Source: an uncultured archaeon (lineage in GTDB: Archaea > Thermoplasmatota > Penumbrarchaeia > JASLWR01). From it: a DNA stretch of 64,000 bases. The notes beneath the pieces were generated by a model. The model did not search any database, was not told where the DNA came from, and saw nothing but the letters and a program-made list of their open reading frames with translations. The stretch spans positions 42,421-106,420 of the forward strand of contig CAYFHS010000012.1 of NCBI GenBank assembly GCA_964342815.1, read 5' to 3'. Shown here piece after piece: positions 1,344 through 59,058 of this stretch. Position 1 is the first letter of the stretch; the number at the start of each line of letters is the position of its first letter. The translations under genes and the position numbers were made by a program.

Positions 1344-1430
1344 ATCTCCATCCCCTGATTAGCTCGCCAGTTAATATTCAACCTCAATAATTTCTCGGAT
1401 AAGCTTGTGGAGCGAACCGGTAAAAATAGC

Positions 1431-11815: not shown

Positions 11816-12093
11816 TTGTCACACCAACTATCATCACATAAAGGAAAATGAAATCGAATCCACAACGGAATAGGCAGGTTCTTTATTAAAGTTTCTCTGG
11901 TTTATACCTTCATCTTAAGGAATATGGTTTCAGGGCTGGCAATGCCATTTTATATCAGAGAGTCCAAGATAAATTTTCAATAAATAATTTAAGCCGCGGA
12001 CCGCATCGAGGAAAATATCCAACATAATATTGAGGCAGATTTTGAAAGATGGAATTTCAATGCGACGGTATCTGGTTACAGTGAGGTTATAAA

Positions 12094-13092: not shown

Positions 13093-13115
13093 GAAATTGG
13101 ATCGATTCAGAAGGA

Positions 13116-13988: not shown

Positions 13989-14051
13989 AACTATCGACCG
14001 TGGGAATTAATAATCAGCTAATATTTTAAAATTTAGGTTCGGGATGAAAAA

Positions 14052-14489: not shown

Positions 14490-14597
14490 AGTGTTTACAA
14501 AGAGTTAAATATTTTGGCAAAGAACGTACAAATAGTCTTAATTATGCTCTATACTTTTCTGTGATACTCATTGGAGTGTATATGGGGGGTGTAATCT

Positions 14598-41380: not shown

Positions 41381-41402
41381 TATGAGCACCTGTCGAAAAA
41401 AT

Positions 41403-42857: not shown

Positions 42858-42858
42858 A

Positions 42859-43608
42859 TCAGGCAGCCTCCCTTATGTTAACCTTTTCCGCAAGCTTGAA
42901 AAAGGTTTCCTCAAGTGAATTTACTTGATATTTCTCGTTCAATTCCTCAACTGTTCCGCTGGCCATCAATTTACCATTGAGAAGAATGCCTATGCGGTCG
43001 CACAATTTCTCCGCAATTGCCATGTAATGGGTTGAAATTATTATGGTCTTACCCCTGGTCTTCTCGGCCAATAGAAGATCAGTAACGGATTTGGCGGTCA
43101 TGATATCCAAACCGGAAGTAGGCTCGTCAAAGATTATTACCTTTGGATCGTGGATCAGGGCCACGGCTATAGCGGCCTTCTGAGCGTTTCCGTGGGACAG
43201 TTTATCTATGAGCAGGTCTCTGTATTCGTCGATCTTGAAGCGTGAGAAAAGAAAGTTCTCCCTTGCTGTTATTATTTTCTTGGGCATGCGGTTGAGCTTG
43301 CCGTAGAAAGTAACGAGTTCATGAGGGGTGAAATTGGGGCTGAGTTTCATCTGAGCCGTGAGGAAACCCAAAGAACCCCTGACCTTCCCCGACTCCTTTT
43401 CGGTGGAAAATCCGTTAACGGTTATTTTACCCTTGGTAGGTTTCAACAATGTTGCCAGCATTCTCAATGAAGTGGTCTTTCCCGCACCATTGGGACCCAG
43501 GAGACCGTATATCTCACCCGGACGTACCGTAAAGGATACGTCATTCACTGCTGTTAGCGAACCGCTTTTGGTCTCGAATATTTTTGTAATCTGCTCGCTT
43601 TTAATCAC
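42859..43608 (-). CDS. ABC transporter ATP-binding protein (NatA-like)
   Basis: 249 aa with a GTG start. Walker A GPNGAGKTT, signature LSHGNAQK, Walker B VIIFDEPTSGLD. Confidence 0.9.
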   Translation of the reverse strand: MIKSEQITKIFETKSGSLTAVNDVSFTVRPGEIYGLLGPNGAGKTTSLRMLATLLKPTKGKITVNGFSTEKESGKVRGSLGFLTAQMKLSPNFTPHELVTFYGKLNRMPKKIITARENFLFSRFKIDEYRDLLIDKLSHGNAQKAAIAVALIHDPKVIIFDEPTSGLDIMTAKSVTDLLLAEKTRGKTIIISTHYMAIAEKLCDRIGILLNGKLMASGTVEELNEKYQVNSLEETFFKLAEKVNIREAA

Positions 43609-43991
43609 TCTATCGCCTACGGAGGTTTATCTGGAATACGGAGCGATAGTGGGATTTGGATAAATCAATGTTTCCTTGTTATTGGATTTTTGGTCAATAG
43701 ATTAGTAGGGTCAATTAACATATATGGATCAATTAGCGAAATATAAATTCTAATGAAAGTTGGGTTCGGCCTCGATGATTGATTAATCTCATATGCCTCC
43801 AAAAACTATATGAAAGTCTAAGCTATTCATGAATGAAATGAGTCTGTAGTGAGATTTCAAATCGTCGCTTTGAAAAAGATCAGGCGTGATCCAGAGAAAA
43901 AATGAACGCTATATAATCACTGAACCGATAGTGAAAATGATAAGAACGAGAATCGAGAGGTGAATTGGCTCATCTGTCATGAAATAATATA

Positions 43992-46900: not shown

Positions 46901-47432
46901 CAACTCAAAACTATCAATAACGTGGTTCAAGAACGAAAAAGTAATTGCTGAAGTAGATAAAGATATTATGAAATTTGTTCTCGGGACAGAGAGAGAAAAC
47001 CCGGGTTGTTCATACGAAATAAAAGTGGATGTTTCGGATGGAAGAAGCAAAATTTCCCATACTTGGATCATAATTCTTTTCTCGCCCGAAAGCGATATTG
47101 ACCGCGACGGTATGGGAGATGCGTGGGAAACAAACAATGGGATGGACTGGACCGACCCGCTGGATGGTGGGCTGGATTACGATGGTGATGGGATTAGCAA
47201 TCTCGAAGAGTTCCTTGGAAAAAGCGACCCATTGAACTCATTATCAATCCCTACCGGTGAGGAGGATGAAGACTCGTCGGAAAGAAAGGCGAGCTTGTTT
47301 TCAAGTTTTTTATTTTGGCTGATTGGAATCATTTTTTTCCTGTTAATATTATTAGTTACATTTATCACTTATAGAAATAGGGCAAATAAAAATCGAATCA
47401 AAGAAGAAAACGACGATTTAGGATCAGGTTAA
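43992..47432 (+). CDS. surface-anchored purple-acid-phosphatase-like metallophosphoesterase with FN3, Ig-like and Ca-binding repeats
   Basis: 1146 aa with an N-terminal anchor/signal. PAP N-domain KGPYLQNVTANSIYIMWET...YHYRV. Metallophosphatase motifs LGDTR, NTGDLVE, GNHEHH, FHHP and GHEH. Several FN3-like modules, a TSP3/dockerin-like DIDRDGMGDAWE...DYDGDGISNLEEF, and a C-terminal TM. Confidence 0.85.
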   Translation: MVVWNIKESSIHIPWSHKTYSLFGFVVVTLLLLTSMGVIIPYHLKSASENNIFLLQTINKYNGKERGAAGIIKGPYLQNVTANSIYIMWETQGEGDSKVEYGLTSSYDRWVHQIDAKTIHEVNLTGLNSGAIYHYRVSSSGILSDDYTFTTAPHPAETYTFLALGDTRTLHNQHRAVVNSMRQEAADFVINTGDLVESGEEQEQWDTFFNISDGIMHSWVYWPVLGNHEHHGEPYFRYFSLPGNEYWYAFDYGNLRFIALDSTQNWRKGTDQYNWLITELQNASIGRRFIIVAFHHPIYNTGVGHGESNPTGPDDDYYEMRETLAPLFETYGVELVLNGHEHIYEHNLVNDVHYVVTGGGGAPLSLPGFSKEWTVSNARAYHYMRIEMSPFSAKVTAQGIDGSVLDSFVISIPFFDFPPANVTDLNAVDTPNDNGGSITLTWNLSADDGGGWDDVSHYALERATGESGPWSLIDILPAGTLSYIDTTTDGTEYFYRMITKDRNKTNTGPVGGPARSLDNVPPHPPSLLHGYDTPGDDGYSLTLEWVPSADEEHGAGSGDVIRYLIGRGVIPRQSTNITSNEDAYANVTAGVHSYTDTNADMNVFYYYTVYADDGTFLSEPSNTEGPLRSRNDRAPYKPHSLKATNIKGNSVDLTWNAVTDTDLAAYEVFISPDVISADYKKRSNGDFFFFKSTSPENNSCMITGLADDTTYKFKVRALDTVNNTSPFSNMVEVKTPDITPPPAPRMDNLGITITNNPRLTVTGVSIDGMMVTVTINGEERDQIEVDQEDGTFAASLVLDEGFNVISCFAVDASGNIGHLSNTIEITLDTIPPSVSKVTPRDNEASAPLDSYITIFFTEPVSMIGIPQPDTYCKNHNIEFIPSLSGNGSILTLPPGNLLRPGTLYMVSLQNSIRDTAGNQMKEPYSWSFTTTAEPLFSGPEIIHSIPSSPYGTIIGEKVELEIAVYDPDTPNSKLSITWFKNEKVIAEVDKDIMKFVLGTERENPGCSYEIKVDVSDGRSKISHTWIIILFSPESDIDRDGMGDAWETNNGMDWTDPLDGGLDYDGDGISNLEEFLGKSDPLNSLSIPTGEEDEDSSERKASLFSSFLFWLIGIIFFLLILLVTFITYRNRANKNRIKEENDDLGSG

Positions 47433-47485: not shown

Positions 47486-48169
47486 TCATTTCAATTCGTC
47501 TAAAAGTTCCATTACTTTCGTCTTGATGATATCAAAAGTTTTCCTGTATTCTTCTATGTCCTTCCCTTTAGGGTCCTCAATGTCCCACATAATAAGCCTG
47601 GACTCTTTATTTGGTAAATTGTCTGCCAGGTCGTCACCCATTCCCAGCTGTTTTCTAATAAGGTCGAGGGAATCGTCGGGAGCATCATCCGAGAGAAGAC
47701 ATCCGAGATCACATCCGAAAGTTACAACCACGTCAGAATCGATCATTCTCGGGGCCTTCGTCGGCTTCCCCTCCCAATCAATTCCATTCTCCCGAAGCAT
47801 ATCCACCATGGTGGGATCGACCTTTTCCGCAGGATTGGTACCACCACTTTCGAAGATCAACCTTGAATTCGTATTCAATTCAGTTGCCAATGCTTCCGCA
47901 ATCTGGCTTCTCAATGAGTTCTCCCTGCACATGAAAAGCACCGTAAGTTTCTTCATTTTCCGATAAAGCTCTTCTCCGACGCAGTCCTTGGCATATTTGC
48001 ACCATTGAATGCAGTTCTGCAGGTCGTTGTATACGCTGAAACCGCATTTATCACATTGGATCACAGTATCTATTGAGAAGAGTTCCACGTCGGACCCGCA
48101 TTCCGGACATTTTTTTATCTTCAACGTCGGTGTTTTCACATTGAAGGTACCTGGGCATCCCATTACCAT
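47486..48169 (-). CDS. LMW-PTP / ArsC-family (thioredoxin-coupled arsenate reductase-like) protein with an N-terminal Cys-rich zinc-ribbon domain
   Basis: ATG 48169 with an AGGTGA RBS is preferred over the track's GTG 48178. Zn ribbon CPECG...CDKCG plus CIQWCKYAKDC. P-loop VLFMCRENSLRSQ (C-x5-R-S). Downstream GCDLGC. Confidence 0.7.
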   Translation of the reverse strand: MVMGCPGTFNVKTPTLKIKKCPECGSDVELFSIDTVIQCDKCGFSVYNDLQNCIQWCKYAKDCVGEELYRKMKKLTVLFMCRENSLRSQIAEALATELNTNSRLIFESGGTNPAEKVDPTMVDMLRENGIDWEGKPTKAPRMIDSDVVVTFGCDLGCLLSDDAPDDSLDLIRKQLGMGDDLADNLPNKESRLIMWDIEDPKGKDIEEYRKTFDIIKTKVMELLDELK

Positions 48170-48180
48170 TTTTCTCACCT

Positions 48181-49803
48181 TTACCTTTCTTTCTTAATCC
48201 AATAGGGATGGGAAATATCCTCGAATGCGGCAATGGCAGCAGTCGATCCTTCACCCACCGCAGTTACGATCTGACGTACTCCTCCGGTAACATCCCCAGC
48301 AGCATATATTCGGGGTATGTTCGTTCTGCATTTTCGGTCAACTTCGATGTAACCGGACCCGTCGAGCTTCACCCCGATCTCCCCGGCAATCCTGGAATTT
48401 GGAATTTCCCCGATGGCCACGAATATTCCCTCCACCTTAAGGTTCTTCACATCACCCGTTACAACGTTTTCGAGTTTCACTCCCACCAATTCTTCATCTT
48501 TGCCCACAATTTTTGTCACTATAGAATTCCATTTTACATGCATGCCTTCTCTCACAACCGCCTCCTGAAGATACGCTTCGCCTCTGAACTCATCCCGACG
48601 GTGAACAATTGTTACCTTGGCACCAAGGTTCTTAAGATATAGTGCATCAGTCAGGGCGTTATTCCCACCGCCAACAATGATCACTTTCTTTTCCTTGTAG
48701 AGATATCCGTCGCAGGTTGCGCAATAGCTGACGCCGTGCCCGGAGAACCTTGCTTCACCCGGTACGTCAAGTTTCTTGTGCGACGCCCCAGTTGCTATAA
48801 TGAGTGCTTTTCCCACGTAATTATTCCGGTTCGTAATTGCCTCGATATTTCGGCCCACCTTGATCTCGCGAACCCCTTCCCCCTGACGAATATGTGTATA
48901 ATTACCTGCCTGTGCGCTTATTATATCCATTAATTTCTTTCCAGGAATATTTGCATAACCCGGATAATTCTCCACAACCGGAGTGACCGAAACCTGTCCT
49001 CCGATGGTCGCTTCTTCCAGAACAACGGTACGCAGCCCGCTTCGCTCCCCGTAGATCGCAGCGGTAAGTCCTGCAGGACCCGCACCCGCGATGATCAGGT
49101 CAACCTTTACTATCTCTCCCCTCACGTCCGGCTCAAACTCTTCAGCTGGTTCCAAACTCAGTAGTTCTGCCATGAATCTCTCTTCAGGCTCCAATCCCCT
49201 GCTCACAGTAATATCGTTTATAATTGTATGAGGAACCGAGCCAACCTTGTAATTTTTAGCGAGGTCTGGGTTCTCAGTAGATTCCACACATTCGGCCGAA
49301 ATGAACTCCGGTCTCTCAATGGCGGCTCTGAAAGCGTTCAATACCTGGCCGGGACAGTATGGGCACCCGGGGGTGACATAGACCTGAACATGCCGTTTCT
49401 CTGTAATCTCGTCCAAGATCTTGCGGGAATCATCAGATAGACCGCTTTTTCCTTTCGAGATCAGCATAATGGTCTCGATGAAAGAGCGCCCTTCCTCGCC
49501 CACCGGGGCCCCCGTATAACGTATATTGTATTCCTCGGGATTGATCAGAACGGTAGGCGACCGCGTAACCTTGTATTTTACGGATTTTTTATTTCCTAGA
49601 ATATTTACCCTCGCTTCGATCTTCTCACTAAGCCTAGCAAGATCATTGACAAACATCATCGTCAGAATATTGTAGGGATTCTCCGTACCCTCGTCCACAA
49701 AGACTTCGAGAATCACCTTACGGTCCAGCTCCCCGAACCTCTCCAGTAACATTTCCCTGCTTTCCTCCGGGATAAACCAATTATTCTGTTTATCATCGGT
49801 CAT
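48181..49803 (-). CDS. thioredoxin-reductase fused to an N-terminal double thioredoxin-fold (AhpF-N / PDO-like) domain
   Basis: ATG 49803 with a GGTGA RBS is preferred over the track's GTG 49812. N-domain CPYC, FAD motif IIAGAGPAGLTAAIY, redox CATC(DG), NAD(P)H motif IIVGGGNNALTDALYL. Confidence 0.85.
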   Translation of the reverse strand: MTDDKQNNWFIPEESREMLLERFGELDRKVILEVFVDEGTENPYNILTMMFVNDLARLSEKIEARVNILGNKKSVKYKVTRSPTVLINPEEYNIRYTGAPVGEEGRSFIETIMLISKGKSGLSDDSRKILDEITEKRHVQVYVTPGCPYCPGQVLNAFRAAIERPEFISAECVESTENPDLAKNYKVGSVPHTIINDITVSRGLEPEERFMAELLSLEPAEEFEPDVRGEIVKVDLIIAGAGPAGLTAAIYGERSGLRTVVLEEATIGGQVSVTPVVENYPGYANIPGKKLMDIISAQAGNYTHIRQGEGVREIKVGRNIEAITNRNNYVGKALIIATGASHKKLDVPGEARFSGHGVSYCATCDGYLYKEKKVIIVGGGNNALTDALYLKNLGAKVTIVHRRDEFRGEAYLQEAVVREGMHVKWNSIVTKIVGKDEELVGVKLENVVTGDVKNLKVEGIFVAIGEIPNSRIAGEIGVKLDGSGYIEVDRKCRTNIPRIYAAGDVTGGVRQIVTAVGEGSTAAIAAFEDISHPYWIKKER

Positions 49804-49873
49804 CCGACTCACCTTTTTTTTAGCTTATAACCTATTAATCCTGTCCCAAAAGTCGACACGAAAAAACCGAGAA

Positions 49874-50413
49874 CTAACCAAAACTGAACTGTTGGAATCG
49901 ATCGGCCTTCACCTTGCATATGGGACAGATGGGAGGAGGATATTCCCTGGCACATAGATAACCGCATACCTCACATCGCCATACTTTTATTGAAGTTTTC
50001 TTTCGGTCAACCGGGACTGCATCACTTTCCAATAAAGGCGTTTCCCGCACGGAATCATCCCCGTCACATTCATAGTCATTGGCAGCTTTCTGAACCTCTG
50101 GGGGTCGCCGTTCAGGGATCGGTCCCATGAGTGAAGGATCGTCGGTAATTTCTTTCGAGACAAAAAGCGCGCAGTAACACATCCCGAACTCGTCGACATC
50201 TGCATCACGGTACTCACAGGGGCACATGATATCCCCGTCATAGATCTTGCTGCCCACTGCCACCCTGCAAGGACAGGAACCGTAACCGTAGCGCTCCTCG
50301 TTCGTCGAGAGACCATCAATCAGATCATCGAGAAGCTCCTTGTCCGGGCAAAGAAAATAACCGTTATTGGCAGCATTTTTCTTCATACGCGAGAGGACAT
50401 TGGCAGTACTCAT
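49874..50413 (-). CDS. ferredoxin:disulfide (thioredoxin) reductase catalytic-subunit-like protein fused to a C-terminal rubredoxin
   Basis: 179 aa. The FTR-type Cys pattern is CPCR...CPCEYRD...CYCALF. The C-terminal WRCEVCGY...CPICK is a rubredoxin-type 4-Cys site. Confidence 0.8.
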   Translation of the reverse strand: MSTANVLSRMKKNAANNGYFLCPDKELLDDLIDGLSTNEERYGYGSCPCRVAVGSKIYDGDIMCPCEYRDADVDEFGMCYCALFVSKEITDDPSLMGPIPERRPPEVQKAANDYECDGDDSVRETPLLESDAVPVDRKKTSIKVWRCEVCGYLCAREYPPPICPICKVKADRFQQFSFG

Positions 50414-50700
50414 TTAACAAGCACCTCACGGATCCGGTCTTCTTTGAATCCCACGATTACTTCTGTGCCGTTGTCCACAACCAAAGTGGGAAAACTCCTC
50501 CGCGGATTATGTTTTCTGGCCTCTTCCATGACCTTCTTCTTCTCATCACCGTGAAGAAGGTCCACATCAACATACTCGTATTCGATATTGAGAGCCTGCA
50601 GCAGTCTTTTCAGCTTTTTGCACCAGCCACAGGTGCTGAGAGTATAGATCGAAACGTGATGTTCACAATTCTTTCCCGGGACATTTTTCATACATTTCAT
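50410..50700 (-). CDS. glutaredoxin / NrdH-like small thioredoxin-fold protein
   Basis: The start is reset to ATG 50700 (MKCMKNV...), 1 nt after the iscU stop. CGWC active site and a Grx-like ...FPTLVVDNGTEVIVGF.... Its stop overlaps the start of the FTR-rubredoxin gene by 4 nt. Confidence 0.75.
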   Translation of the reverse strand: MKCMKNVPGKNCEHHVSIYTLSTCGWCKKLKRLLQALNIEYEYVDVDLLHGDEKKKVMEEARKHNPRRSFPTLVVDNGTEVIVGFKEDRIREVLVK

Positions 50701-50701
50701 T

Positions 50702-51142
50702 TCACTCACACTCCATATCATAGGTTTCGGGGATCGAGCTGGATATATCCGAACCGTCCCCCTCCCCATTCTTCTCTTTGAAGTTCTTTATCGCTGCGTG
50801 CAGAGCGTCTGCTGCCAAGTTAGAACAGTGCATTTTCAAGGGAGGCAGGCCGTCAAGCTCGTTGGCAACATCATTGCGTGTGATTTTCAATGCCTCGTCC
50901 ACATTCATTCCGGTGGCCAATTCAGTAACCATACTGCTAGTAGCAATGGCTGATCCGCATCCAAAGGTTCTGAACTTAATATCGGTGATTATTTCGTCCT
51001 CCACCTTGATGAATATCTCCATGACGTCTCCGCAAACGGGATTGCCAACCTTCCCGTAACCGTCATTGTCCTCGATGACCCCCACGTTTCTCGGGTTCAT
51101 GAAATGGTCCATGACCTTCTTGGTGTATCCTACTTGTGCCAT
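50702..51142 (-). CDS. iscU: Fe-S cluster scaffold IscU/NifU-N
   Basis: 146 aa with a GGAGGTGA RBS. MDHFMNPRNVG, GNPVCGDVM, FGCGSAIATSS and LPPLKMHCSNLA are the three conserved Cys contexts. Confidence 0.9.
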   Translation of the reverse strand: MAQVGYTKKVMDHFMNPRNVGVIEDNDGYGKVGNPVCGDVMEIFIKVEDEIITDIKFRTFGCGSAIATSSMVTELATGMNVDEALKITRNDVANELDGLPPLKMHCSNLAADALHAAIKNFKEKNGEGDGSDISSSIPETYDMECE

Positions 51143-51169
51143 ATCTTTTCACCTCCATATTATTTATCA

Positions 51170-52321
51170 TTACAACGGTGACAACATTCTGAGTCTATTT
51201 ACAGTATTCTTTGACGCTTCCACCACCCGCAGTACTTCATCCATCGTATTTCCACGCCCCAACGTCAAGACCATGGAGCCATGGGCTTCCTCGTGCTTCA
51301 GCCCGATGGCCAGTAGAACATGGGAGGGCTCGAGAGTCTTCGAGGAGCATGCCGAACCTGTGGAAACTGGTATACCGTACATGTCCATTGACAGCAAGAT
51401 GCTTTCGCCCTCGATCCTGCTGAAGCGGAAACTTGCATGATTCGGTAGACGCTTTGAGGGATGCCCCGTGAGATACGACTCATCTATTTTTAATATTCCC
51501 TTTATCAGTTCGTCCCTAATAAGGGTCAACCGACGGCTTTCCGCATTCATTTCACTTTTCACGATACGTGCAGCTTCGCCCATACCGGCTATTGCGAATA
51601 GGTTCTCCGTGCCTGATCGAATCCCACGCTCCTGCCCCCCGCCCGGTAGTATGGATTGGATCTTCACCCCTGGTTTAACATACAGGGCACCGGCGCCCGG
51701 GGGACCATAGATATCGTTCGAGGAGATGGTGAGAAGATCTATCCCGTCATCTTGCACATCCACGGGTATTCGTCCCACGGCAGCAGTTGCATCCACATGC
51801 AGGTAAGAGCCTTTCTCATGAACGATCTCGCTTATTTCCTTTATGGGTTCTATGGTACCGATCTCGTTGTTCGCATACATTATGGAGGTCAAAACGGTTT
51901 CCTCGCTCAAAGTATTTCTAAGTGATTTGATATCCAAGATACCGGTAGAATCCACAGGGATCAATTTCAATTCATATCCATTCTTCTGAAGCTCTTTCAT
52001 GGGATTGAGGACTGACATGTGATCAATTGCACTTGCAGCAAGCTTCTTTCCCTTTACCGGATTCCGAAGAGCCGTTCCCTTGATAGCCAGGTTATTGGCT
52101 TCGGTTGCACCGGAAGTAAATATGATACATTTTTCACTTTCGGCATTGATTAGCTCGGCGATACTCGCCCTGGCTTCTTCCAGCTCCCTTCGCGCCTCGA
52201 GACCTGATGAATGAAGCGAAGAGGGATTGCCGAAATCGATCATTAAAAAGCGTTTCGCATATTCAAGTACCCGGGGGTCCACCGGCATGGATGATGCATG
52301 ATCCAGATATATACGTTCCAT
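51170..52321 (-). CDS. iscS: cysteine desulfurase (IscS/NifS class)
   Basis: The start is reset to ATG 52321 (MERIYLDHAS...), which avoids overlap with the upstream gene. PLP-region ...FTSGATEANNLAIKG..., ...HVDATAAVG..., and the active-site loop SGSACSS. Confidence 0.9.
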   Translation of the reverse strand: MERIYLDHASSMPVDPRVLEYAKRFLMIDFGNPSSLHSSGLEARRELEEARASIAELINAESEKCIIFTSGATEANNLAIKGTALRNPVKGKKLAASAIDHMSVLNPMKELQKNGYELKLIPVDSTGILDIKSLRNTLSEETVLTSIMYANNEIGTIEPIKEISEIVHEKGSYLHVDATAAVGRIPVDVQDDGIDLLTISSNDIYGPPGAGALYVKPGVKIQSILPGGGQERGIRSGTENLFAIAGMGEAARIVKSEMNAESRRLTLIRDELIKGILKIDESYLTGHPSKRLPNHASFRFSRIEGESILLSMDMYGIPVSTGSACSSKTLEPSHVLLAIGLKHEEAHGSMVLTLGRGNTMDEVLRVVEASKNTVNRLRMLSPL

Positions 52322-52331
52322 AGGCTCATCT

Positions 52332-52700
52332 CTAAAACCACATTGTTGCACCGGCATCGAGGGACAGGTCGTTCAAGGTACCGGCTCCCACGATTTTAAC
52401 TCCGGGGATAAATTCCACCTTATCAAGTCCCAGCATCTGCTTTGATGCCTCGCATACATATATCGTTATTCCCATTTCGAGGGTTTTTTGAATCATCTCC
52501 GCAACACTTGGAAATGATCCGAGTTTTATCTTCTCGGCTTCGCCTGGCATCAATAATTTGAGGCCAGTACCGAGATAATAGACTTCCGCTTTTATATCCA
52601 TCATCTTTGCAGTCTGCGCCAACACCAGCGGCGAATACTGTTTTTCAGGATTGTCGGTGGTCTGCACATACAGAATATAGTTCTCATCTTTCATATTCAT
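52332..52700 (-). CDS. DsrE/DsrF-like (COG2044-type) sulfur-relay / peroxiredoxin-family protein
   Basis: 122 aa with a GGGAGG RBS. The pattern is a DsrE-like alpha/beta fold, with a conserved Cys in the YVCEAS context. Confidence 0.65.
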   Translation of the reverse strand: MNMKDENYILYVQTTDNPEKQYSPLVLAQTAKMMDIKAEVYYLGTGLKLLMPGEAEKIKLGSFPSVAEMIQKTLEMGITIYVCEASKQMLGLDKVEFIPGVKIVGAGTLNDLSLDAGATMWF

Positions 52701-52757
52701 ATACCTCCCATATACTTTCCTTCTTTCAAATTAAGAAATATAACAGCAGTATCCACG

Positions 52758-53000
52758 TCATTTCATTCGTCTGATAAAAAAGGTCATTATTGATCCTTCT
52801 TTTTCAAATTTCAGCACATCGTGACCGGTTCTTTTGGCCCATCGTTTGATATCCTCTTCCGCAGCTGGATCGTCGGCTTCAATTTTCAATACTTGACCCA
52901 CCTCTATCTTGTCTATTCCCTCCTTAGTCATTGAGATGGGCATAGGACAGTAAAAACCCACGCAGTCCAATTCCGCGTCAATTGCGATATCCGATGACAT
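52758..53000 (-). CDS. TusA/SirA-like sulfurtransferase
   Basis: The start is reset to ATG 53000 (MSSDIAIDAELDCVGFYCPMP...) with a GGAGGA RBS. The track's TTG at 53099 adds 33 unsupported residues. The CPxP motif (CPMP) is the TusA persulfide-carrier signature. Confidence 0.8.
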   Translation of the reverse strand: MSSDIAIDAELDCVGFYCPMPISMTKEGIDKIEVGQVLKIEADDPAAEEDIKRWAKRTGHDVLKFEKEGSIMTFFIRRMK

Positions 53001-53095
53001 TTTCAATTCCTCCAATTGCTTTTCGTACATTGCCCTGGCTATTTCGATTAATCTAGGTGGCAGACCTGTGTCAGGTCTATTTATGAAAGAGAGAA

Positions 53096-53569
53096 TCAAT
53101 TCTCGGTCAGGATCTGTTCATCATATTCTATCTCAAAGCGCAGCTTGTGTTTTGCTTCTTCCTGGGCAAGGTCAAGAAACAGAGTGGACAGGCTCTCATC
53201 ATCCATTGCGGTTGCTAGATCGGAATACATCTTGAATGCCGCTTTTTCTTTCTTCATTGCAACGATAAGAGCTTCCTGATAATCCATCCCGGGATATGGT
53301 TCAATATCAACTAGGTAATCACCAATTTTCAAGTCCGGGACCTTTTTCCCCCCGGTCTTTCCGATGGTTCCGGTCTTTATCCCAATTAACTTCTTTTTGT
53401 GGCCAAGCTCCTCACGGGCGAAATCCTCGAAGACCTTTCGCATGGACGGACGCTCCATATTTTGAGCAAGATCCATGTAGAATCCATGAGCTTCCTCTTC
53501 ACCCTTGATAGCAAAATCGAGTATGTCATCCACCGAGTCAAAGTTGATCATGGTTTTTTCCTCCTGCAT
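53096..53569 (-). CDS. ferritin-like diiron domain protein (rubrerythrin-domain only, COG1633-type)
   Basis: 157 aa. Two E...ExxH pairs (GEEEA...EELGH; KEKAA...EEAKH). An alternative start at ATG 53551 has a GGAGGA spacer. Confidence 0.7.
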   Translation of the reverse strand: MQEEKTMINFDSVDDILDFAIKGEEEAHGFYMDLAQNMERPSMRKVFEDFAREELGHKKKLIGIKTGTIGKTGGKKVPDLKIGDYLVDIEPYPGMDYQEALIVAMKKEKAAFKMYSDLATAMDDESLSTLFLDLAQEEAKHKLRFEIEYDEQILTEN

Positions 53570-53580
53570 TGATAATTGTA

Positions 53581-54156
53581 TTACCAGTTTTCTGCGGCGA
53601 CCTCAAAATACTTTTGAGGGTGATCGCAAGCGGGACATTTCGGAGGTGCATTTGTTCCCTCGAAAACATATCCGCAATTGAGACAACGCCATACAACGGG
53701 TTTTTCTTTTACGAAAGCTGTACCGTTCCGTACATTCTCGAGGAGTCCCCGATACCTTTTCTCATGTTGTTTCTCGGCAACCGCTATGGACTCGAAAGTG
53801 GAAGCGATCTCGTCGAAACCCTCGTCCCATGCAATTTCGGCAAAACCAGGATACATCTCTGTCCACTCGTAATTCTCACCTGCTGCTGAATTTGTTAAAT
53901 TTTCCGCAGTGCCCTCGATCATACCTGCAGGGAAAGCCCCGCTGATCTCCACCTCGCCGCCCTCGAGGAATTTGAACAACCTCTTTGCGTGTTCCCTTTC
54001 CTGATTGGCGGTCTCATCGAATATCTGTGAAATCTGTACAAATCCCTCTTTCTTTGCCTTGGCACTGTAGTATGTATAGCGGTTTCGGGCTTGGGATTCT
54101 CCAGCGAATGCCGTTAATAAATTCTTTTCCGTTTGTGTTCCTTTCAAACTCTTCAT
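53581..54156 (-). CDS. rbr: rubrerythrin
   Basis: 191 aa. The N-terminal [27 protein letters not shown]...EREHAKRLF is the classic diiron domain. The C-terminal WRCLNCGY...CPACDHP is the rubredoxin-like domain. Confidence 0.92.
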
Positions 54157-54177
54157 TTAATTCCTCCGTATTTTCCA

Positions 54178-54372
54178 TTATAAAGGTGCATAATAACATC
54201 TTTTCGGTGAATGCAGTTTACCCCGCATTCTTAATTCTTTTATTATTTTTGAAACTTCTTTGCTCTCAATTCCTGTTATCTTGGCAACGTCCCCGGGTCT
54301 CATGGGTTTATCTGCATCTACAAATGCTTTTAGTACCTTTTCCTGGTCACTCATAATAATCACCTCTTTCAT
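54178..54372 (-). CDS. small winged-helix DNA-binding protein
   Basis: 64 aa (58 aa from ATG 54354, which has a GAGGTGA RBS). ...KPMRPGDVAKITGIESKEVSKIIKELRMRGKLHSPKRCYYAPL has a helix-turn-helix plus wing pattern. The ATG overlaps the TGA of the hemerythrin gene (ATGA). Confidence 0.6.
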   Translation of the reverse strand: MKEVIIMSDQEKVLKAFVDADKPMRPGDVAKITGIESKEVSKIIKELRMRGKLHSPKRCYYAPL

Positions 54373-54854
54373 TTCGGGTCGATCCTTCCCTTAAGCAATA
54401 AGAGATTTTCTTTTGATAGTTTATGACGTACAAACGGATAAAAGGTATCATCCTCTTCATCAGCATGTTCAAGAAGATCTCTCAGTAATATCCGGGATTC
54501 TTCCGAAAATTCTCTGATCATTCCATAATCAAGTTCATCCTGAGATATTAATTTTTTTAATTTGTAAAATCCATTCCGCAGTTCTTTATGTTTGCGCAGG
54601 ATATTGGACATGATCCTTTGTTCTTCCGCAGTAATATCAACATTTTCTTCGATGAGATCGATAAGTATCTCCTCCTGCTTGAAGTGAACTAATAAATTTT
54701 CCGATAGATATCTCATAACATTATTGAAATTTACCGTGGTTACTTTATTATTTTCGTGGGTCGGCCCAAACATTGAAGAATATTCTATACCGAGAGCGAT
54801 ATTTTCTCTTAGATTGTTATGTGCGTTGGAAATAAGACCTATTATATCGATCAT
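54369..54854 (-). CDS. hemerythrin-like (HHE cation-binding) domain protein
   Basis: 161 aa with an AGGAGG RBS. H/E-containing helices (…LVHFKQEE…, …RKHKELR…, …LLEHADEEDDTFYPFV…) are consistent with a four-helix diiron hemerythrin fold. Confidence 0.55.
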   Translation of the reverse strand: MIDIIGLISNAHNNLRENIALGIEYSSMFGPTHENNKVTTVNFNNVMRYLSENLLVHFKQEEILIDLIEENVDITAEEQRIMSNILRKHKELRNGFYKLKKLISQDELDYGMIREFSEESRILLRDLLEHADEEDDTFYPFVRHKLSKENLLLLKGRIDPK

Positions 54855-54890
54855 GTCTCACAACCTCCTGTGGGCGATATACTTTTTCCA

Positions 54891-55385
54891 TTATTTATAT
54901 TTCCAGTCACCCGTCCTTTCCAAACTCTTTAGATTATCCGTTAGAAGGGCGATATGATCCTTTTCGAAATCGGCCAGTCTCCCGAATAGATTCCTCGTTT
55001 CATAGTCATCAATGATCTTTTGGTTTTTCTTATAGAATTCAACTGATCTTTTCTCGATGTCAATGGCGAATTTTATTGCTTTCACTGCATCGAAATCGGA
55101 AAATATTTCCGGGAGTCTCCTGTGATCGAGGAATATCTCACCTTTTGCAATAATGGAAATTGGCTGAGCCCCCGACTCATTGAGCACATCTGAATTTTGC
55201 AGGGTTCGTTTATATTCCTCTTCAAGCCATTTCATATGCTCCAATTCCATTTCTGCCAGATGAGAAATTATGCTCTGAGCGCTACGATCATTTACAAAGT
55301 CTCTCATAGTGTTGTAGAAACCGTAACCGAAGTTCTCGATCTCTATGGCCTGGCGAATTGTTCCCATTGTAATGTCGATTTGCAC
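54891..55385 (-). CDS. ferritin-like diiron domain protein (COG1633-type), second copy
   Basis: 164 aa with a GTG start. ExxH pairs are AIEIEN...EMELEH and AIDIEK...FEKDH. Confidence 0.7.
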   Translation of the reverse strand: MQIDITMGTIRQAIEIENFGYGFYNTMRDFVNDRSAQSIISHLAEMELEHMKWLEEEYKRTLQNSDVLNESGAQPISIIAKGEIFLDHRRLPEIFSDFDAVKAIKFAIDIEKRSVEFYKKNQKIIDDYETRNLFGRLADFEKDHIALLTDNLKSLERTGDWKYK

Positions 55386-55450
55386 GATATCATTCCTCGT
55401 AACAGTTTTGCGTCATCGCTGATTTTTTTATTCTTATCATTTCTCCAGTT

Positions 55451-55942
55451 CTATTTGCCGCGCTGCCCGAGGTCCCGGTCCAGTACGAAGAGCCCGGGAC
55501 CGTTATTACCTATGAGCCTAGCCTTGTCCAATATTTCGCGGGAATGGTCCTCTTCCTCAACCTGCTCTTTCACGAACCACTGGAGAAAGTTCTGGGTAGA
55601 ATGATCTTTTTCCCCGGAAGCGAGATCCACAAGTTTGTGTATCAAGCCTGTCACTTTCTGCTCGTGGGCATACACATGCTCGAAGACCGCTAGAGCCGAA
55701 TCCCATTGATCCGGAGTGGCTTCAATATTGAACAAGGTCACCCTACCGCCGGAATCTATCACGTAATCGTATATCTTCATGGCGTGCTCCATCTCTTCCT
55801 CCGCCTGTTTCCTCATCCAGTGTGCCATTCCTGAGAGACCCTTGTCACTCAGGGAGGCGGACATGGAAAGATAGAGATATGCAGAGTACATTTCGGCATT
55901 AGTCTGCGCATTCAAAGCTTCTTCCACGGATTTATTTAACAT
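55451..55942 (-). CDS. ftn: ferritin (non-heme, FtnA-like)
   Basis: 163 aa with a GGAGGG RBS. LNAQTNAEMYSAYLYLSMSA...EEEMEHAMKIYDY...EQ.EE is the canonical ferroxidase-centre pattern. Confidence 0.9.
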   Translation of the reverse strand: MLNKSVEEALNAQTNAEMYSAYLYLSMSASLSDKGLSGMAHWMRKQAEEEMEHAMKIYDYVIDSGGRVTLFNIEATPDQWDSALAVFEHVYAHEQKVTGLIHKLVDLASGEKDHSTQNFLQWFVKEQVEEEDHSREILDKARLIGNNGPGLFVLDRDLGQRGK

Positions 55943-56005
55943 TTCTACAACCCTCCAAAGAATTTTTCGTTTTCAATTTACTATTTTCATGGGGCCGTTA
56001 TCCTT

Positions 56006-56377
56006 TCAAGCGGACCACAGGCCGTGTAATGAGCAATATTCCCTGACCTGAATGATCTCCTCGGTGTTTTTAAAGAAGGCCTGGGGCGCATCACCCGGTT
56101 TTAAAAACTTTCGTTGCACTCCACCGGCGGTGATGACCTCGATCCATTCGATGTAATGGTTGGACTCCATTGGGTGCTGCACGGCGCCCACGGTAACCTT
56201 CACACCTTCATCGGTCTTTTCCACCACGGGGACATGCTTCTCCATGCCCTGATCTTCTGTTTTTGCTTCCTGTAATTGCATCGATTGCCCGCAGCACACC
56301 AATCGTCCTCCTCCGGCATGCAGCACACTCACGATGTTCCCACAGATATTACATTTGTATACTCCTGTCCTCTTCAT
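56006..56377 (-). CDS. dfx: desulfoferrodoxin (2Fe superoxide reductase)
   Basis: 123 aa. Centre I is YKCNICGN...LVCCG. Centre II ligands sit in EKHVPV, VQHPM, SNHYIEW and YCSLHGLW. Confidence 0.92.
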   Translation of the reverse strand: MKRTGVYKCNICGNIVSVLHAGGGRLVCCGQSMQLQEAKTEDQGMEKHVPVVEKTDEGVKVTVGAVQHPMESNHYIEWIEVITAGGVQRKFLKPGDAPQAFFKNTEEIIQVREYCSLHGLWSA

Positions 56378-56398
56378 TGTTTTTCACCTCTATATTGA

Positions 56399-56689
56399 TC
56401 AGATTTCGAGATTTCGTCCAGTACATTCCGGGATGTAACAGGTCACGTCGATAAATTGACATTTTTCCTTGCATCCCGGACATATCTCAGGTGGAACGGA
56501 GCCGCTGAGAGCATACCCGCAGCTAGAGCATTTCCATTCCATTTTTGGGTTTTGACTTTTATTTAGCAGGATCTTTCCTTCGGGTACCTTGCCGAATTTG
56601 GATTTTAGCGCGCCGCATTCAGGGCATGTTTCCGGAGATTCATTGCCCATGTGCTCGTAACCGCAAACTACACATCGCCATTTTATCAT
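56399..56689 (-). CDS. tandem rubredoxin-type (rubrerythrin C-terminal-like) 4-Cys domain protein
   Basis: 96 aa with two units: WRCVVCGY...CPECGA and WKCSSCGY...CPGCKE. Confidence 0.75.
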
Positions 56690-56698
56690 CTTTTCACC

Positions 56699-57022
56699 TC
56701 AATTGGTCCTTTTCATGTAATTTTCGCGGATGTTGATTAGAGAGCCGTGTTCTTGATAAGCTTCAATAAGATCATGAGAGTAATTATCGGAACAATACCA
56801 TATAAACGGATTGGTTTTCCGATATCTGCTTTCCGGCGTATTGTGTACTTTTTTTTCAAGCTCTGTGTATCTCGATTTCCATCCGGCGGGTTCTTTCTCA
56901 CGACCAAGAAAGACTCCATTCTCATTTTTATACATATTTATTAATCTTTGGTTGAGATATTTTATTTCTTTCTCAGAAAGGTTTTTTATTATCAACACGC
57001 GTAAGACCTCACGATACGTCAT
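56699..57022 (-). CDS. hypothetical protein (107 aa)
   Basis: The ATG abuts the stop of the upstream cupin gene (TAGATG). No motif recognised. AT-rich. Confidence 0.45.
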   Translation of the reverse strand: MTYREVLRVLIIKNLSEKEIKYLNQRLINMYKNENGVFLGREKEPAGWKSRYTELEKKVHNTPESRYRKTNPFIWYCSDNYSHDLIEAYQEHGSLINIRENYMKRTN

Positions 57023-57388
57023 CTATTCACCTTCTTTCAAATTGTTATTATTTAACTCGACCCCCATCTTCCCGTTCGGTATTATCGGACAAAACGAGAG
57101 CAAAGTCATTCCATTTTTTGATGCGGATAAGAAGTGAGAGTTTCCTTTTGGAACGAGAATCAACATACCTTTACTTATATTCTTACTAGATTCATCAATC
57201 GTAATTAGACCATTTCCATCCACTATATAATGTATCTCATCGATATCGGTGTGGATATGGCGGGGTAACGTTCTATCGGGACCAATGAAATATACTGAGG
57301 CTATGACCTGATCGGTAATTATCGGGACTTTTTTGATCACCTTTGCTTGTTCTATTTCTTTCATGTCATCAATATTTATCAATTCCAT
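57023..57388 (-). CDS. cupin-domain protein
   Basis: 121 aa. The cupin metal motifs are PRHIHTDIDEIHYIVDGNG and LVPKGNSHFL. It is the first gene of the redox island. Confidence 0.7.
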   Translation of the reverse strand: MELINIDDMKEIEQAKVIKKVPIITDQVIASVYFIGPDRTLPRHIHTDIDEIHYIVDGNGLITIDESSKNISKGMLILVPKGNSHFLSASKNGMTLLSFCPIIPNGKMGVELNNNNLKEGE

Positions 57389-57409
57389 TGTATACCCTTA
57401 CGGCTTCCG

Positions 57410-57419
57410 CTATATATAT
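57410..57419 (-). promoter_or_regulatory. candidate TATA box for the redox-island operon
   Basis: The alternating tract CTATATATAT lies about 22-31 nt upstream of the ATG at 57388 on the minus strand. This would imply a leaderless or very short-leader transcript. Confidence 0.3.
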
Positions 57420-57468
57420 CGAAATTTCAAATTTCTTTATAAAATAAGTGAATATCTTCTATAATTAA

Positions 57469-57490
57469 TATGCAAATCATATGCAAATCA
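57469..57490. promoter_or_regulatory. perfect 11-bp tandem direct repeat TATGCAAATCA x2 (candidate operator)
   Basis: 57469-57479 and 57480-57490 are identical. The repeat sits in the 200-bp divergent intergenic region between the redox island and the HTH-PAS gene. Confidence 0.4.
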
Positions 57491-57588
57491 CAGATAATAC
57501 ATTCATTATTGTATCATCTTATTTAATAGGCAAATAATGGGGTGCAAAAAAGTTTAATAACCAGGATACCATTTGAAGTACCGATCAG

Positions 57589-59058
57589 ATGCTTCCGTTA
57601 AAGAGAAAGCTGTCCTATCTCATTCTCGGTCAAAAGGGCGGTAAGAATAGGATAAAAATCATCGAGATATTGAAAGACCGACCATATAACTTGAACCAGC
57701 TAGCCGGATTATTAAACGTAAACTATCGTACCGTAAAACACCATATAGACGTATTATTGAAAAACGAACTGATAAGCTCATCAAGGACAGGGGGATACGG
57801 GGAAGTATATTTTCTGACTCCAGAAATGGAAGGAAATATGGATATCTTCCAGGACGTAATCAAGAAATTGACCGACTTTACATCATCAAAAAAGTTTTTC
57901 AAAAATATAATGGAACAGACCACCGATGCAGTGATGATAATCAACGAGGAGGGGGATGTGTATTTCTGGAATAACGGCGCAAAAAAGATTTACGGTTATA
58001 GCGAGGAGGAGGTATTGGGTAAAACAATCACAATCTTTCCTGATCTCGGAACCTATGAAAAATTGATTAAGCAAATCGCTGACGGTGAACAAATTGTGGC
58101 TTTGGAAGCAGAGCTTAGGCACAGATCCGGAAAACTCATTGATGTCAGTCTGACCATAGACGGAATTAAGGATGAGAACGGGAGCATTATAGGTTATTCT
58201 ATAATGTCACAAGATATTACAGAACGGAGGCGCGCGGCAGAGAAACTGAAAATCAGCGAGGAGCGTTATGCACTAGCACAGCGGACGGCCAATATCGGGA
58301 GCTGGGACTGGGATATTACCACCGGAGATCTTCATTGGTCTGATACCATCGAGCCGATGTTCGGTTTTAGCCCCGGAAAATTCAGGCGCAGCTACGAAGC
58401 ATTCCTGGATTGTGTACACCCCGACGACCGCCAGTTCGTGATCAACAGTGTGAATGCTTGTGTGGAAAAGGGCGATGAATACGATATCGAGCACCGTATC
58501 ATTTGGCCCGATGGTACAATAAGAATAGTATCCGAGACCGGGGACGTGTTCCGGGATGAGCAGGAAAATGCCGTCCGAATGGTGGGAATCGTGCAGGACA
58601 TTACCGACCGCAAAAGAGTGGAAGAGGAACTCAGGAAAAATGAGGTCGAAATGACCGCCATACTCAAGAATGTACCGATACCCATGATACTGGTGGACGG
58701 GGAAAGACGGATACATGAGGTCAATGACGAAGCCATAAAATTCGCTGGAAACGCTGAAGAAATGATGATCGGTCAACTGGAAGGCAACGGGCTCGGATGT
58801 CTCTATTCACTGGACGACCCAAAGGGCTGCGGGTTCGGACCTAACTGTGGATTTTGTGAGATACGCACAACCGTACTGGACACTCTTGATACAGGAACGA
58901 ACCATTACAGGGTAAAAGCCCGGATCACAAGGGGAACCGAGGAAAACAGAGAAGTACTGGATATTCTGCTTTCAACGACACTACTTCACGTCATGGGGGA
59001 GCGAAAAGTATTGGTCTGCATTGAGCCGTTGAATGGCGGTTCCAAGTGTGGGGAGTAA
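57589..59058 (+). CDS. HTH (ArsR-like) transcription regulator with three PAS domains; the last carries a 4-Cys motif
   Basis: 489 aa. N-terminal ...RIKIIEILKDRPYNLNQLAGLLNVNYRTVKHHIDVLLKNELI.... PAS signatures include ...TTDAVMIINEEGDVYFWNNGAKKIYGYSEEEVLGK... and ...GSWDWDITTGDLHWSD...VHPDD...EHRIIWPDGTIR...QDITDRK.... The third PAS has GC...GCGFGPNCGFCEIR. Confidence 0.85.
   Translation: MLPLKRKLSYLILGQKGGKNRIKIIEILKDRPYNLNQLAGLLNVNYRTVKHHIDVLLKNELISSSRTGGYGEVYFLTPEMEGNMDIFQDVIKKLTDFTSSKKFFKNIMEQTTDAVMIINEEGDVYFWNNGAKKIYGYSEEEVLGKTITIFPDLGTYEKLIKQIADGEQIVALEAELRHRSGKLIDVSLTIDGIKDENGSIIGYSIMSQDITERRRAAEKLKISEERYALAQRTANIGSWDWDITTGDLHWSDTIEPMFGFSPGKFRRSYEAFLDCVHPDDRQFVINSVNACVEKGDEYDIEHRIIWPDGTIRIVSETGDVFRDEQENAVRMVGIVQDITDRKRVEEELRKNEVEMTAILKNVPIPMILVDGERRIHEVNDEAIKFAGNAEEMMIGQLEGNGLGCLYSLDDPKGCGFGPNCGFCEIRTTVLDTLDTGTNHYRVKARITRGTEENREVLDILLSTTLLHVMGERKVLVCIEPLNGGSKCGE

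Follow-up and report, generated by a model that had tools for sequence, protein, structure and literature searches.

An eighteen-gene array joining oxidant defence, iron-sulfur cluster assembly and thiol reduction in an uncultured archaeon: probably an inherited locus with several promoters

Do 18 co-directional genes whose predicted products remove superoxide and peroxide, store iron, assemble iron-sulfur (Fe-S) clusters, carry sulfur and reduce disulfides form a single regulon for recovery from oxygen exposure? The question is raised by positions 47486-57388 of a 64,000-nucleotide stretch of contig CAYFHS010000012.1 (positions 42,421 to 106,420; assembly GCA_964342815.1) from an uncultured marine archaeon of the Thermoplasmatota. 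This whole stretch is referred to as the window, and the 9.9-kb array as the island. The initial annotation had listed the 18 minus-strand genes and proposed such a regulon. All of the open reading frames (ORFs) were present at these coordinates, and Pfam and NCBIfam searches of the 18 ORFs backed the domain labels given to them. Our results suggest, with a probability of about 0.65, that the island is a real, inherited, genus-specific and enlarged array, which would sustain an Fe-S-dependent anaerobe where oxygen intrudes and would be served by several promoters rather than forming one oxygen-induced regulon. In order of transcription, the genes of the island are as follows.

57023-57388, minus strand: cupin-fold protein of 121 amino acids (aa), first gene of the array (Pfam Cupin_2, 1.5e-08).
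56699-57022, minus strand: hyp107, a hypothetical, fast-evolving ORF of 107 aa without a family (no Pfam or NCBIfam match).
56399-56689, minus strand: tandem rubredoxin-like protein, 96 aa (RUBY_RBDX in two matched stretches, 6e-20).
56006-56377, minus strand: desulfoferrodoxin (Dfx, a 2Fe superoxide reductase), 123 aa (TIGR00320, 183.1 bits against a cut-off of 146.9).
55451-55942, minus strand: non-haem ferritin (Ftn), 163 aa (Pfam Ferritin, 2.6e-46).
54891-55367, minus strand: FtnL1, a rubredoxin-less di-iron protein of the rubrerythrin family, 158 aa, or 164 aa from a GTG at 55385 (Pfam Rubrerythrin, 3.6e-09).
54369-54854, minus strand: hemerythrin HHE-domain protein (Hr), 161 aa (PF01814, 3.6e-08).
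54178-54354, minus strand: mini winged-helix protein (wHTH), 58 aa, or 64 aa from an ATG at 54372 (weak DUF7343 match).
53581-54156, minus strand: rubrerythrin (Rbr), a predicted peroxidase of 191 aa with a C-terminal rubredoxin domain (NF045767, 299 bits against a cut-off of 200).
53096-53551, minus strand: FtnL2, the second rubredoxin-less rubrerythrin/ferritin-like protein, 151 aa (Pfam Rubrerythrin, 2.8e-17).
52758-53000, minus strand: TusA-type sulfur carrier, 80 aa (PF01206, 1.9e-23, 82.5 bits against 28.6).
52332-52700, minus strand: DsrE-fold protein, 122 aa, with one invariant Cys (VCEAS; PF02635, 4.5e-14, 53 bits against 22.7).
51170-52321, minus strand: lysine-less IscS (Aminotran_5), 383 aa, with SSND replacing SGHK and the Cys loop SACSS kept.
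50702-51142, minus strand: IscU Fe-S scaffold, 146 aa (TIGR03419, 207.2 bits against a cut-off of 187.9).
50410-50700, minus strand: glutaredoxin/NrdH-like redoxin (Grx-like), 96 aa, with CGWC (PF00462, 7e-14).
49874-50413, minus strand: FTR-rubredoxin protein (FTR-Rd) of the ferredoxin:disulfide reductase (FDR) type, 179 aa (FeThRed_B, 5.6e-20; RUBY_RBDX, 2.7e-11).
48181-49803, minus strand: AhpF-like fusion (PDO-TrxR) of a PDO-type double thioredoxin fold and a low-Mr thioredoxin reductase, 540 aa (Thioredoxin_3 and Pyr_redox_2).
47486-48169, minus strand: zinc-ribbon and LMW-PTP/ArsC-fold protein (ZnR-PTP), 227 aa, with the CX5R motif CRENSLRS, last gene of the array (LMWPc, 7.7e-16).

The closest genome to that of the window (G000; 4.35 Mb in 116 contigs, 89% complete) was G001, that of a sister species ('Thermoplasmatota archaeon isolate ETNP2_MAG_1'), a metagenome-assembled genome from the Eastern Tropical North Pacific, an oxygen-deficient ocean zone. 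All 18 genes were found in G001 in the same order. They were carried by two contigs, of which C13 (4.7 kb) contained the genes from FtnL2 to cupin and C136 those from TusA to ZnR-PTP, and the contig ends overlapped by 13 nt (as reverse complements), so that the 18 genes are contiguous. The protein identities between G000 and G001 ranged from 64 to 93% (79% for cupin, 83% for the tandem rubredoxin and 81% for ZnR-PTP), while the identity at third codon positions, which served as the neutral proxy, was 63%. The flanks of the island were also syntenic except for one surface-protein gene and one insertion sequence (IS). The gene for a 1146-aa surface metallophosphatase (43992-47432, ~3.4 kb), at whose end ZnR-PTP converges on it, was missing from G001, in which a rve-type transposase gene lay between the divergent ArsR-PAS regulator gene (contig C81; see below) and the island. 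The transposase is likely the cause of the contig break. Given these two exceptions only, the idea that the flanks differ between the two species was rejected. The DNA match of G001 jumps from window positions 40002-43718 directly to the ZnR-PTP end. The last ~50 nt of C13 (L022 4655-4707) are part of a dispersed repeat found at more than 20 places in G000 (86-96% identity), probably an IS or a family of miniature inverted-repeat transposable elements that breaks assemblies.

Copy number was assessed by tblastn of all 18 proteins against G000 (E<=1e-5). For 13 of the 18 families, the sole copy found in the genome was inside the island: cupin, tandem rubredoxin, Dfx, ferritin, both ferritin-like proteins, hemerythrin, wHTH, Rbr, IscU, Grx-like, FTR-Rd and ZnR-PTP.

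Outside the genus, G002 and G003, which belong to other genera of the same family, contained only modules of the array. In G003, FprA-SOR-Ftn-Rbr-FtnL2 (SOR, superoxide reductase) was followed by a 908-aa protein and then by a lysine-bearing IscS and IscU. In G002, the families were scattered over at least four contigs, and a 412-aa homolog of ArsR-PAS was divergent from a desulforedoxin/SOR-MBL-Bcp-nitroreductase...Grx-FTR array. The closed genome G012 contained PerR-FprA-Ftn-FtnL-Dfx-Rbr-TusA-DsrE-IscS-IscU-Hr, with Grx-FTR-Rd-PDO-TrxR 196 kb from this core array, and G014 contained TusA-DsrE-IscS-IscU-Dfx-Ftn-Rbr. In the Methanomassiliicoccales bin396 (L034), Rd-TusA-DsrE-Dfx-FtnL-FtnL-wHTH-Rbr-FtnL2-FtnL adjoined PerR, FprA and a divergent Grx-FTR-Rd, and 12 of the 18 island families were found within 11 kb.

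A metagenome scan with a DsrE alignment as the query yielded 80 loci with at least 78% identity, in which neighbors were counted only where the flank sufficed. TusA was directly upstream of DsrE in 64/69 loci and Rbr was upstream in 35/45, with PerR further upstream in 23/34. Downstream were IscS (43/46), IscU (36/39), Dfx after IscU (25/30) and, in 3 of 21 loci, Grx-FTR-Rd. The usual order was PerR-(FprA)-ferritin-ferritin-like-rubrerythrin-TusA-DsrE-IscS-IscU-desulfoferrodoxin, and Rbr-TusA-DsrE-IscS-IscU-Dfx clearly stands out as a block that is conserved as a unit. The island is a rearranged, enlarged, genus-specific variant of this widespread array: Dfx has moved upstream beside the tandem rubredoxin, Grx/FTR-Rd, PDO-TrxR and ArsC/LMW-PTP have been added on the same strand, and the head consists of cupin, hyp107 and the ArsR-PAS gene instead of PerR. 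Moreover, in a set with one genome for each species, an FTR-Rd alignment as the query recovered 80 FTR-Rd loci from archaea and many bacterial phyla. A Grx-like gene was directly upstream of FTR-Rd in 77 of them, and other island families were found within 10 kb in only ~10 of 80. These arrangements show that the toolkit is assembled from exchangeable modules. The grouping, which the initial annotation had expected to be accidental if relatives lacked it, is functional, as indicated by the synteny with G001 and by the link of reactive oxygen species (ROS) defence and iron genes with TusA-DsrE-IscS-IscU, which recurs in most of the 80 DsrE loci and in further families of this class.

The chemistry of these families suggests how the products would work together. 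The tandem rubredoxin, the probable electron donor to Dfx and Rbr, would pass electrons to desulfoferrodoxin, which would convert superoxide to peroxide, and to the rubrerythrin-type di-iron proteins, which would convert peroxide to water; ferritin would capture iron released by damaged clusters. IscU, held by a lysine-less IscS that would not act as a desulfurase, would build Fe-S clusters with TusA and DsrE as its likely sulfur carriers. The two disulfide reductases, one ferredoxin-driven and the other NAD(P)H-driven, would re-reduce protein thiols.

The IscS-IscU pair bears on the question of a stress regulon. The best solved match of the island IscS was Archaeoglobus fulgidus IscS (4EB5/4HVK, 9e-135), with which it shares an identical LTISSNDIYGP motif. 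The Asp of SSND aligned with Asp199 of A. fulgidus IscS, the residue that is Lys in the D199K variant (4R5F). An Asp thus occupies the position of the lysine that forms the Schiff base with pyridoxal phosphate (PLP) in active desulfurases (S-G-H-K), and the protein scored below the IscS and NifS equivalog cut-offs. The Cys loop (S-x-G-S-A-C-S-S) is present as STGSACSSKTLEPSHV, aligned with 4EB5, and iscU follows 27 nt downstream, as expected for the Archaeoglobus type of lysine-less IscS. A. fulgidus IscS, which lacks the PLP lysine, is inactive as a desulfurase; its proposed role is to hold IscU and to supply one Cys ligand (PMC7585200; PMC8918507). Because the lysine is missing in the same way as in this inactive protein (SSND), the island 'IscS' is probably neither a cysteine desulfurase nor the source of persulfide.

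Lysine loss was compared with DsrE linkage. In the loci compared, all 61 DsrE-linked IscS genes lacked the lysine; of the 20 IscS genes that were not beside DsrE, six had it and 14 did not (Fisher p=1e-4, the genomes being kin). The 14 unlinked lysine-less genes, which include those of ten family f7 genomes that lack DsrE altogether, refuted the proposition that lysine loss always accompanies TusA-DsrE. Since ten f7 genomes carry lysine-less IscS-IscU without TusA or DsrE, the two carriers accompany lysine-less IscS but cannot be generally required by it. Upstream of the f7 IscS-IscU pairs (L203-L208, L215-L217 and L221), TusA-DsrE is replaced by a conserved 190-240-aa protein with a GCGGC...SGCF motif, and the f7 lysine-less pairs adjoin a proteasome-activating-nucleotidase-like gene.

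IscU, found in 39 of 41 genomes, gave a single tblastn match in G000. A search for SufB/D (PF01458) detected none in G000, its three family relatives or the closed G012. Overall, 36 of the 41 genomes gave no match, and all 14 control genomes gave one. Given that the island IscU is the only Fe-S scaffold detected in the genome and that SUF was not found, the IscS-IscU module is probably a housekeeping one, needed at all times, and this middle part of the island would be expressed constitutively. A further proposal is put forward only tentatively: the sole Fe-S machine of this lineage may be a desulfurase-dead IscS-IscU that receives sulfur from TusA and DsrE, themselves loaded either by a lysine-bearing IscS encoded next to NadA or from environmental sulfane sulfur, and its placement among scavengers may be a selected coupling of cluster building to oxidant removal. 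The sulfur source of lysine-less IscS-IscU pairs is an open question in the literature (PMC8918507). If true, the proposal would answer it and would define an 'oxygen-proofed' minimal ISC system.

The layout of the island is compatible with joint transcription. Gene starts were chosen behind GGAGGTG-like Shine-Dalgarno sites, which were found upstream of nearly every internal gene (for instance, AGAGGTGAT upstream of the wHTH ATG at 54354). With these starts, the gaps given earlier, -4 to 95 nt, were reproduced: in transcription order they are 0, 9, 21, 63, 83 (65), 36, 14 (-4), 21, 29 (11), 95, 57, 10, 27, 1, -4, 70 and 11 nt, with alternative values in brackets. Three further features bear on the control of the island.

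57589-59058, plus strand: protein of 489 aa with an ArsR-type helix-turn-helix and three PAS domains (ArsR-PAS; HTH_5 and PAS folds; 87% identical in G001), divergent from the first array gene and a candidate redox-sensing regulator.
57389-57588, no strand assigned: divergent control region with two tandem copies of ATGCAAATCA (57469-57490), two copies of AAATTTC, ATTTGCATAT repeats, and ATATATATA ~30 nt before the cupin ATG.
49804-49873, minus strand: conserved 70-nt intergenic element between FTR-Rd and PDO-TrxR, with a T6 run, then GGATTAATAGGTTATAAG, then the Shine-Dalgarno site of PDO-TrxR.

The 120 nt upstream of cupin were 78% identical to G001 (p=2e-4). The tandem ATGCAAATCA box has no second occurrence in the genome. 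It is conserved in G001, and the equivalent region of G002 contains a single TTGCATAT box; the tandem box is a candidate operator of ArsR-PAS. As a regulon-wide operator it was rejected, with no copy in the other gaps of the array and a single genome occurrence. The 70-nt gap was identical to G001 in 65/71 columns (92%, against the 63% of the proxy; p=3.6e-08). Its T6 run lies 9 nt past the FTR-Rd stop and is the only intergenic run of at least five T on the sense strand of the array. An RNA element in this gap was rejected, since the predicted fold was no better than those of shuffled sequences (z=-0.75) and an Rfam scan of the window gave no match. The gap is a candidate for a terminator together with a promoter or operator that would serve PDO-TrxR and ZnR-PTP from within the array, and its conservation and oligo-T suggest a separate unit for the last two genes. 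Of the other gaps, that between Ftn and FtnL1 (83 nt) was 78% identical to G001 against 63% (p=0.003), and those before Ftn, TusA and DsrE (56-68%) did not differ significantly. The FtnL2-TusA gap, at neutral identity overall (56%), contains a perfect 6-bp hairpin at 53060-53076 (GACCTG-ACA-CAGGTC), where G001, whose contig break is a few bases away, has a different palindrome (GGTCC-TGCAG-GGACC).

PerR/Fur boxes were also considered and rejected. The GTAATNATTAC palindrome, derived from the PerR promoters of G000, G012 and L034 and searched with at most 2 mismatches, showed no enrichment in the window, with 37 matches where 31 would be expected, and its matches in the array were unconserved. 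The arrays of the relatives are headed by PerR, whereas in this genome PerR heads another operon, 19 kb from the island.

The strongest alternative is that of the initial annotation, namely one oxygen- or peroxide-inducible regulon, perhaps a single operon, switched by ArsR-PAS for recovery after oxygen exposure. The co-directional genes with short gaps and internal Shine-Dalgarno sites, the conserved divergent control region with a box unique in the genome, and the pairing of ArsR-PAS with a SOR-led array in a second genus (G002) are all consistent with it. However, an array that holds the sole IscU of a genome in which SUF was not detected cannot be stress-only. In addition, the tandem box is found nowhere else in the array, the 92%-conserved gap with its oligo-T and TATA-like sequence sets off the last two genes, a second small regulator gene (wHTH) is inside the array, and relatives keep the modules at separate, PerR-headed loci. 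A single oxygen-recovery regulon is therefore judged unlikely. The arrangement points to at least two separately controlled parts, and several promoters are probable: one in the ArsR-PAS control region, one in the element before PDO-TrxR and perhaps an internal input from Hr/wHTH.

Several observations weigh against an inherited array with several promoters and a housekeeping Fe-S module. Gaps of 0-36 nt with a Shine-Dalgarno site before nearly every gene would equally fit one long polycistronic RNA from the cupin promoter, and read-through of the T6 run is possible. At 89% completeness, the 'only copy' and 'no SUF' results could reflect assembly gaps, although G001 (93%) and the closed G012 agree with both patterns. 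The island encodes no donor that would reduce rubredoxin; a Hrb-like flavin reductase-rubredoxin is encoded 19 kb away. Finally, the 80 metagenome loci are kin and were picked by DsrE similarity, so that their counts overstate independence.

That the island was recently acquired as a mobile fitness island, and is not a vertically inherited locus, would account for some of the identities. IscU of G000 was 76-81% identical to those of other families (G012, G014, G006 and G010) and only 63-64% identical to those of the same-family G002 and G003. Similarly, Dfx was 60-65% identical to Dfx/SOR of other families (65% to G012) and 25-28% identical to the SORs of G002 and G003, and DsrE was 74-82% identical to those of other families and was not found in G002 or G003. 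A transposase gene also adjoins the array in G001. Moreover, on contig C17 of G000 (9910-14870), a lysine-bearing IscS (SGHK) is flanked on one side by NadA and on the other by a 915-aa secreted protein whose N-terminal part is thioredoxin-like, with CxxC; G003 has this lysine-bearing IscS and large protein as well, followed there by IscU, not NadA. Against acquisition of the whole island, both flanks are syntenic between the two species, its GC content (0.40-0.49) is about that of the surroundings, no tRNA gene, integrase gene or integration site was found in the surrounding window, and Rbr and FtnL2 are nearest to those of the same-family G003. A mobile island is therefore improbable, and for these reasons only the TusA-DsrE-IscS-IscU cassette, perhaps together with Dfx, appears to have been imported. 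On the simplest reading, genus g1 gained this cassette (with or without Dfx) beside its own Ftn/Rbr and lost its old IscU. That functionally unrelated redox genes came together by chance, a view to which the scattering of modules over several loci in G002 and G003 might lend some color, is contradicted by the synteny data and can be dismissed: the 18-gene order is kept at 63% third-position identity, most of the 80 loci have the Rbr-TusA-DsrE-IscS-IscU-Dfx core, and 9.9 kb of a genome of 4.35 Mb hold 13 single-copy families.

The inherited, enlarged array can be compared with known systems. In Pyrococcus furiosus, SOR, rubredoxin and Rbr are encoded at one locus. A five-gene cluster, rbo-rub/rbr-fprA-hrb, has been described for Moorella thermoacetica (Das et al., 2001, as cited in PMC12422968), and clostridia possess rbr/sor operons controlled by PerR (PMC8546684; PMC11980386). 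Similar to these clusters, the island has rubredoxin, Dfx/SOR and rubrerythrin genes side by side, with electrons predicted to flow via rubredoxin, and a candidate redox regulator that is divergent or adjacent; this side-by-side arrangement near a redox regulator is classical and known. Different from them, the island has 18 genes and adds ferritin, two rubredoxin-less di-iron proteins, the hemerythrin and mini-wHTH pair, the sole IscU together with its lysine-less IscS, the carriers TusA and DsrE, and two systems for disulfide reduction. Its adjacent regulator is ArsR-PAS, with PerR 19 kb away, unlike in the clostridial PerR operons.

Similar to A. fulgidus IscS2-IscU (4EB5, 4EB7 and 4HVK; D199K, 4R5F), the island pair has Asp at the position of the PLP lysine, the Cys loop and an adjacent IscU. 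The island pair is preceded by TusA and DsrE and lies amid ROS-defence genes; the comparison with Archaeoglobus covered the IscS-IscU pair itself. A minimal ISC-type system of IscS and IscU only is known from anaerobic archaea (PMC13066941; PMC7585200). The island shares with it the absence of chaperones, ferredoxin and IscA and an anaerobic archaeal host, but here it is the only system found (no SMS/SUF), its IscS lacks the lysine and two sulfur-carrier genes are attached. In Methanosarcina, FDR works with a NrdH/Trx-like partner (Kumar et al., 2015; Wei et al., 2015; as summarised in PMC6262447). The island likewise has an FTR catalytic domain fused to rubredoxin directly after the gene of a small glutaredoxin-like redoxin; unlike in Methanosarcina, the pair is not beside ribonucleotide reductase and is joined to the ROS/Fe-S island, 1 nt after iscU. 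PDO-TrxR resembles AhpF and archaeal PDO plus TrxR in its architecture, with a double thioredoxin fold at the N terminus and a low-Mr TrxR behind it. Different from AhpF, it scored 285.7 bits with TIGR03140 against a cut-off of 502.9, and no AhpC gene adjoins it, the next gene encoding the zinc-ribbon ArsC/LMW-PTP-fold protein.

That each component is known on its own had been stated at the outset, and FDR with its redoxin, AhpF-like fusions, lysine-less IscS and minimal ISC have all been described. Full-text literature searches brought up no account of a TusA-DsrE-IscS-IscU module within a rubrerythrin/desulfoferrodoxin cluster. The main points of interest are this link between Fe-S assembly and sulfur carriers and the exchange of the regulator. 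In oxygen-deficient waters and sediments, strict anaerobes rely on Fe-S enzymes that are labile to oxygen, and the island gathers the toolkit of an uncultured archaeon for that condition. It offers as candidate proteins the lysine-less IscS with its carriers, the ArsR-PAS one-component regulator with its tandem box, the hemerythrin/mini-wHTH pair and the PDO-TrxR/ArsC-like pair. For annotation, this 'IscS' should not be called a cysteine desulfurase, nor IscSU a stress-only system.

The claim that the array is unusually complete failed in two respects: comparable arrays exist elsewhere, and FprA, a PerR-nitroreductase-Hrb-Isf locus and four peroxiredoxin-domain matches are all outside the island. 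The PerR locus (C12:116455-119536) is on the same contig as the island, 19 kb from it and ~13 kb past the end of the window, and contains a PerR/Fur homolog (134 aa) followed by a nitroreductase, a flavin-reductase/rubredoxin fusion (Hrb-like) and an Isf-like flavoprotein. This PerR is 54% identical to the array-heading PerR of G012, and its promoter contains the palindrome GTAATCATTAC. The four AhpC-TSA-domain matches are on other contigs, and an Fe/Mn superoxide dismutase was not found in G000. FprA is on another contig, C39, where (355-3507) it is followed by four tandem mini-wHTH paralogs (65-74 aa) and a DsrE-family protein; these small wHTH proteins resemble the 58-aa wHTH of the island.

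The assignments of the individual genes vary in firmness. The cupin was seen at the head of the array in this genus only. For hyp107, an ORF of similar length is open in G001, with conservation limited to the first ~35-60 residues (the N-terminal third), and the identities at the three codon positions (61/78/66%) are atypical for purifying selection. Dfx contains both Pfam Dfx domains and the cysteines C9, C12, C28 and C29, as expected for desulfoferrodoxin. Rbr has the features of rubrerythrin and is 80% identical to that of G003. The two 'ferritin-like' proteins possess the di-iron domain only and are not classical rubrerythrins; FtnL2 also follows Rbr in G003, L034 and G001. The hemerythrin HHE protein has weak similarity to the di-iron protein RIC of Fe-S repair. 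Homologs of the mini-wHTH, a candidate local regulator, adjoin Rbr or ferritin in L034, G039 and G002.

TusA possesses the active-site motif YCPMP (CPMP) and scored below the E. coli TusA equivalog cut-off; it is a member of the family, not an orthologue of E. coli TusA, as judged from these scores. Cys83 of the DsrE-like protein was invariant in the DsrE alignment A2. Its best solved relative was 3MC3 (DsrE/DsrF-like), and it scored 26 bits with the DsrE2 equivalog, whose cut-off is 210. IscU contains the motifs GNPVCGD, FGCGSAIA and MHCS of IscU/NifU scaffolds. The FTR-Rd and Grx-like genes overlap by 4 nt; the CPC...CPC...C(H/Y)C cysteines of FTR-Rd were invariant in the FTR-Rd alignment A1, and together with the neighboring redoxin they predict an FDR. 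The pair is the known ferredoxin:disulfide reductase with its small redoxin, for which ferredoxin dependence is predicted. PDO-TrxR matched TIGR02187 (PDO, 1.5e-51) and TIGR01292 (TrxR, 3.5e-95), the best solved match of its TrxR part was 3CTY, and full-length homologs were found in G001, G012, G002 and G040. ZnR-PTP matched arsenate-reductase models below their cut-offs.

Finally, a second TusA-DsrE pair, 79% and 92% identical to that of the island, was found outside the window on contig C11 (6563-11671). It is located behind cupin and pirin genes and before the gene of a 723-aa DUF255/YyaL-type thioredoxin-domain protein, and represents a recent duplication of the two carriers, placed in a different thiol-redox context.

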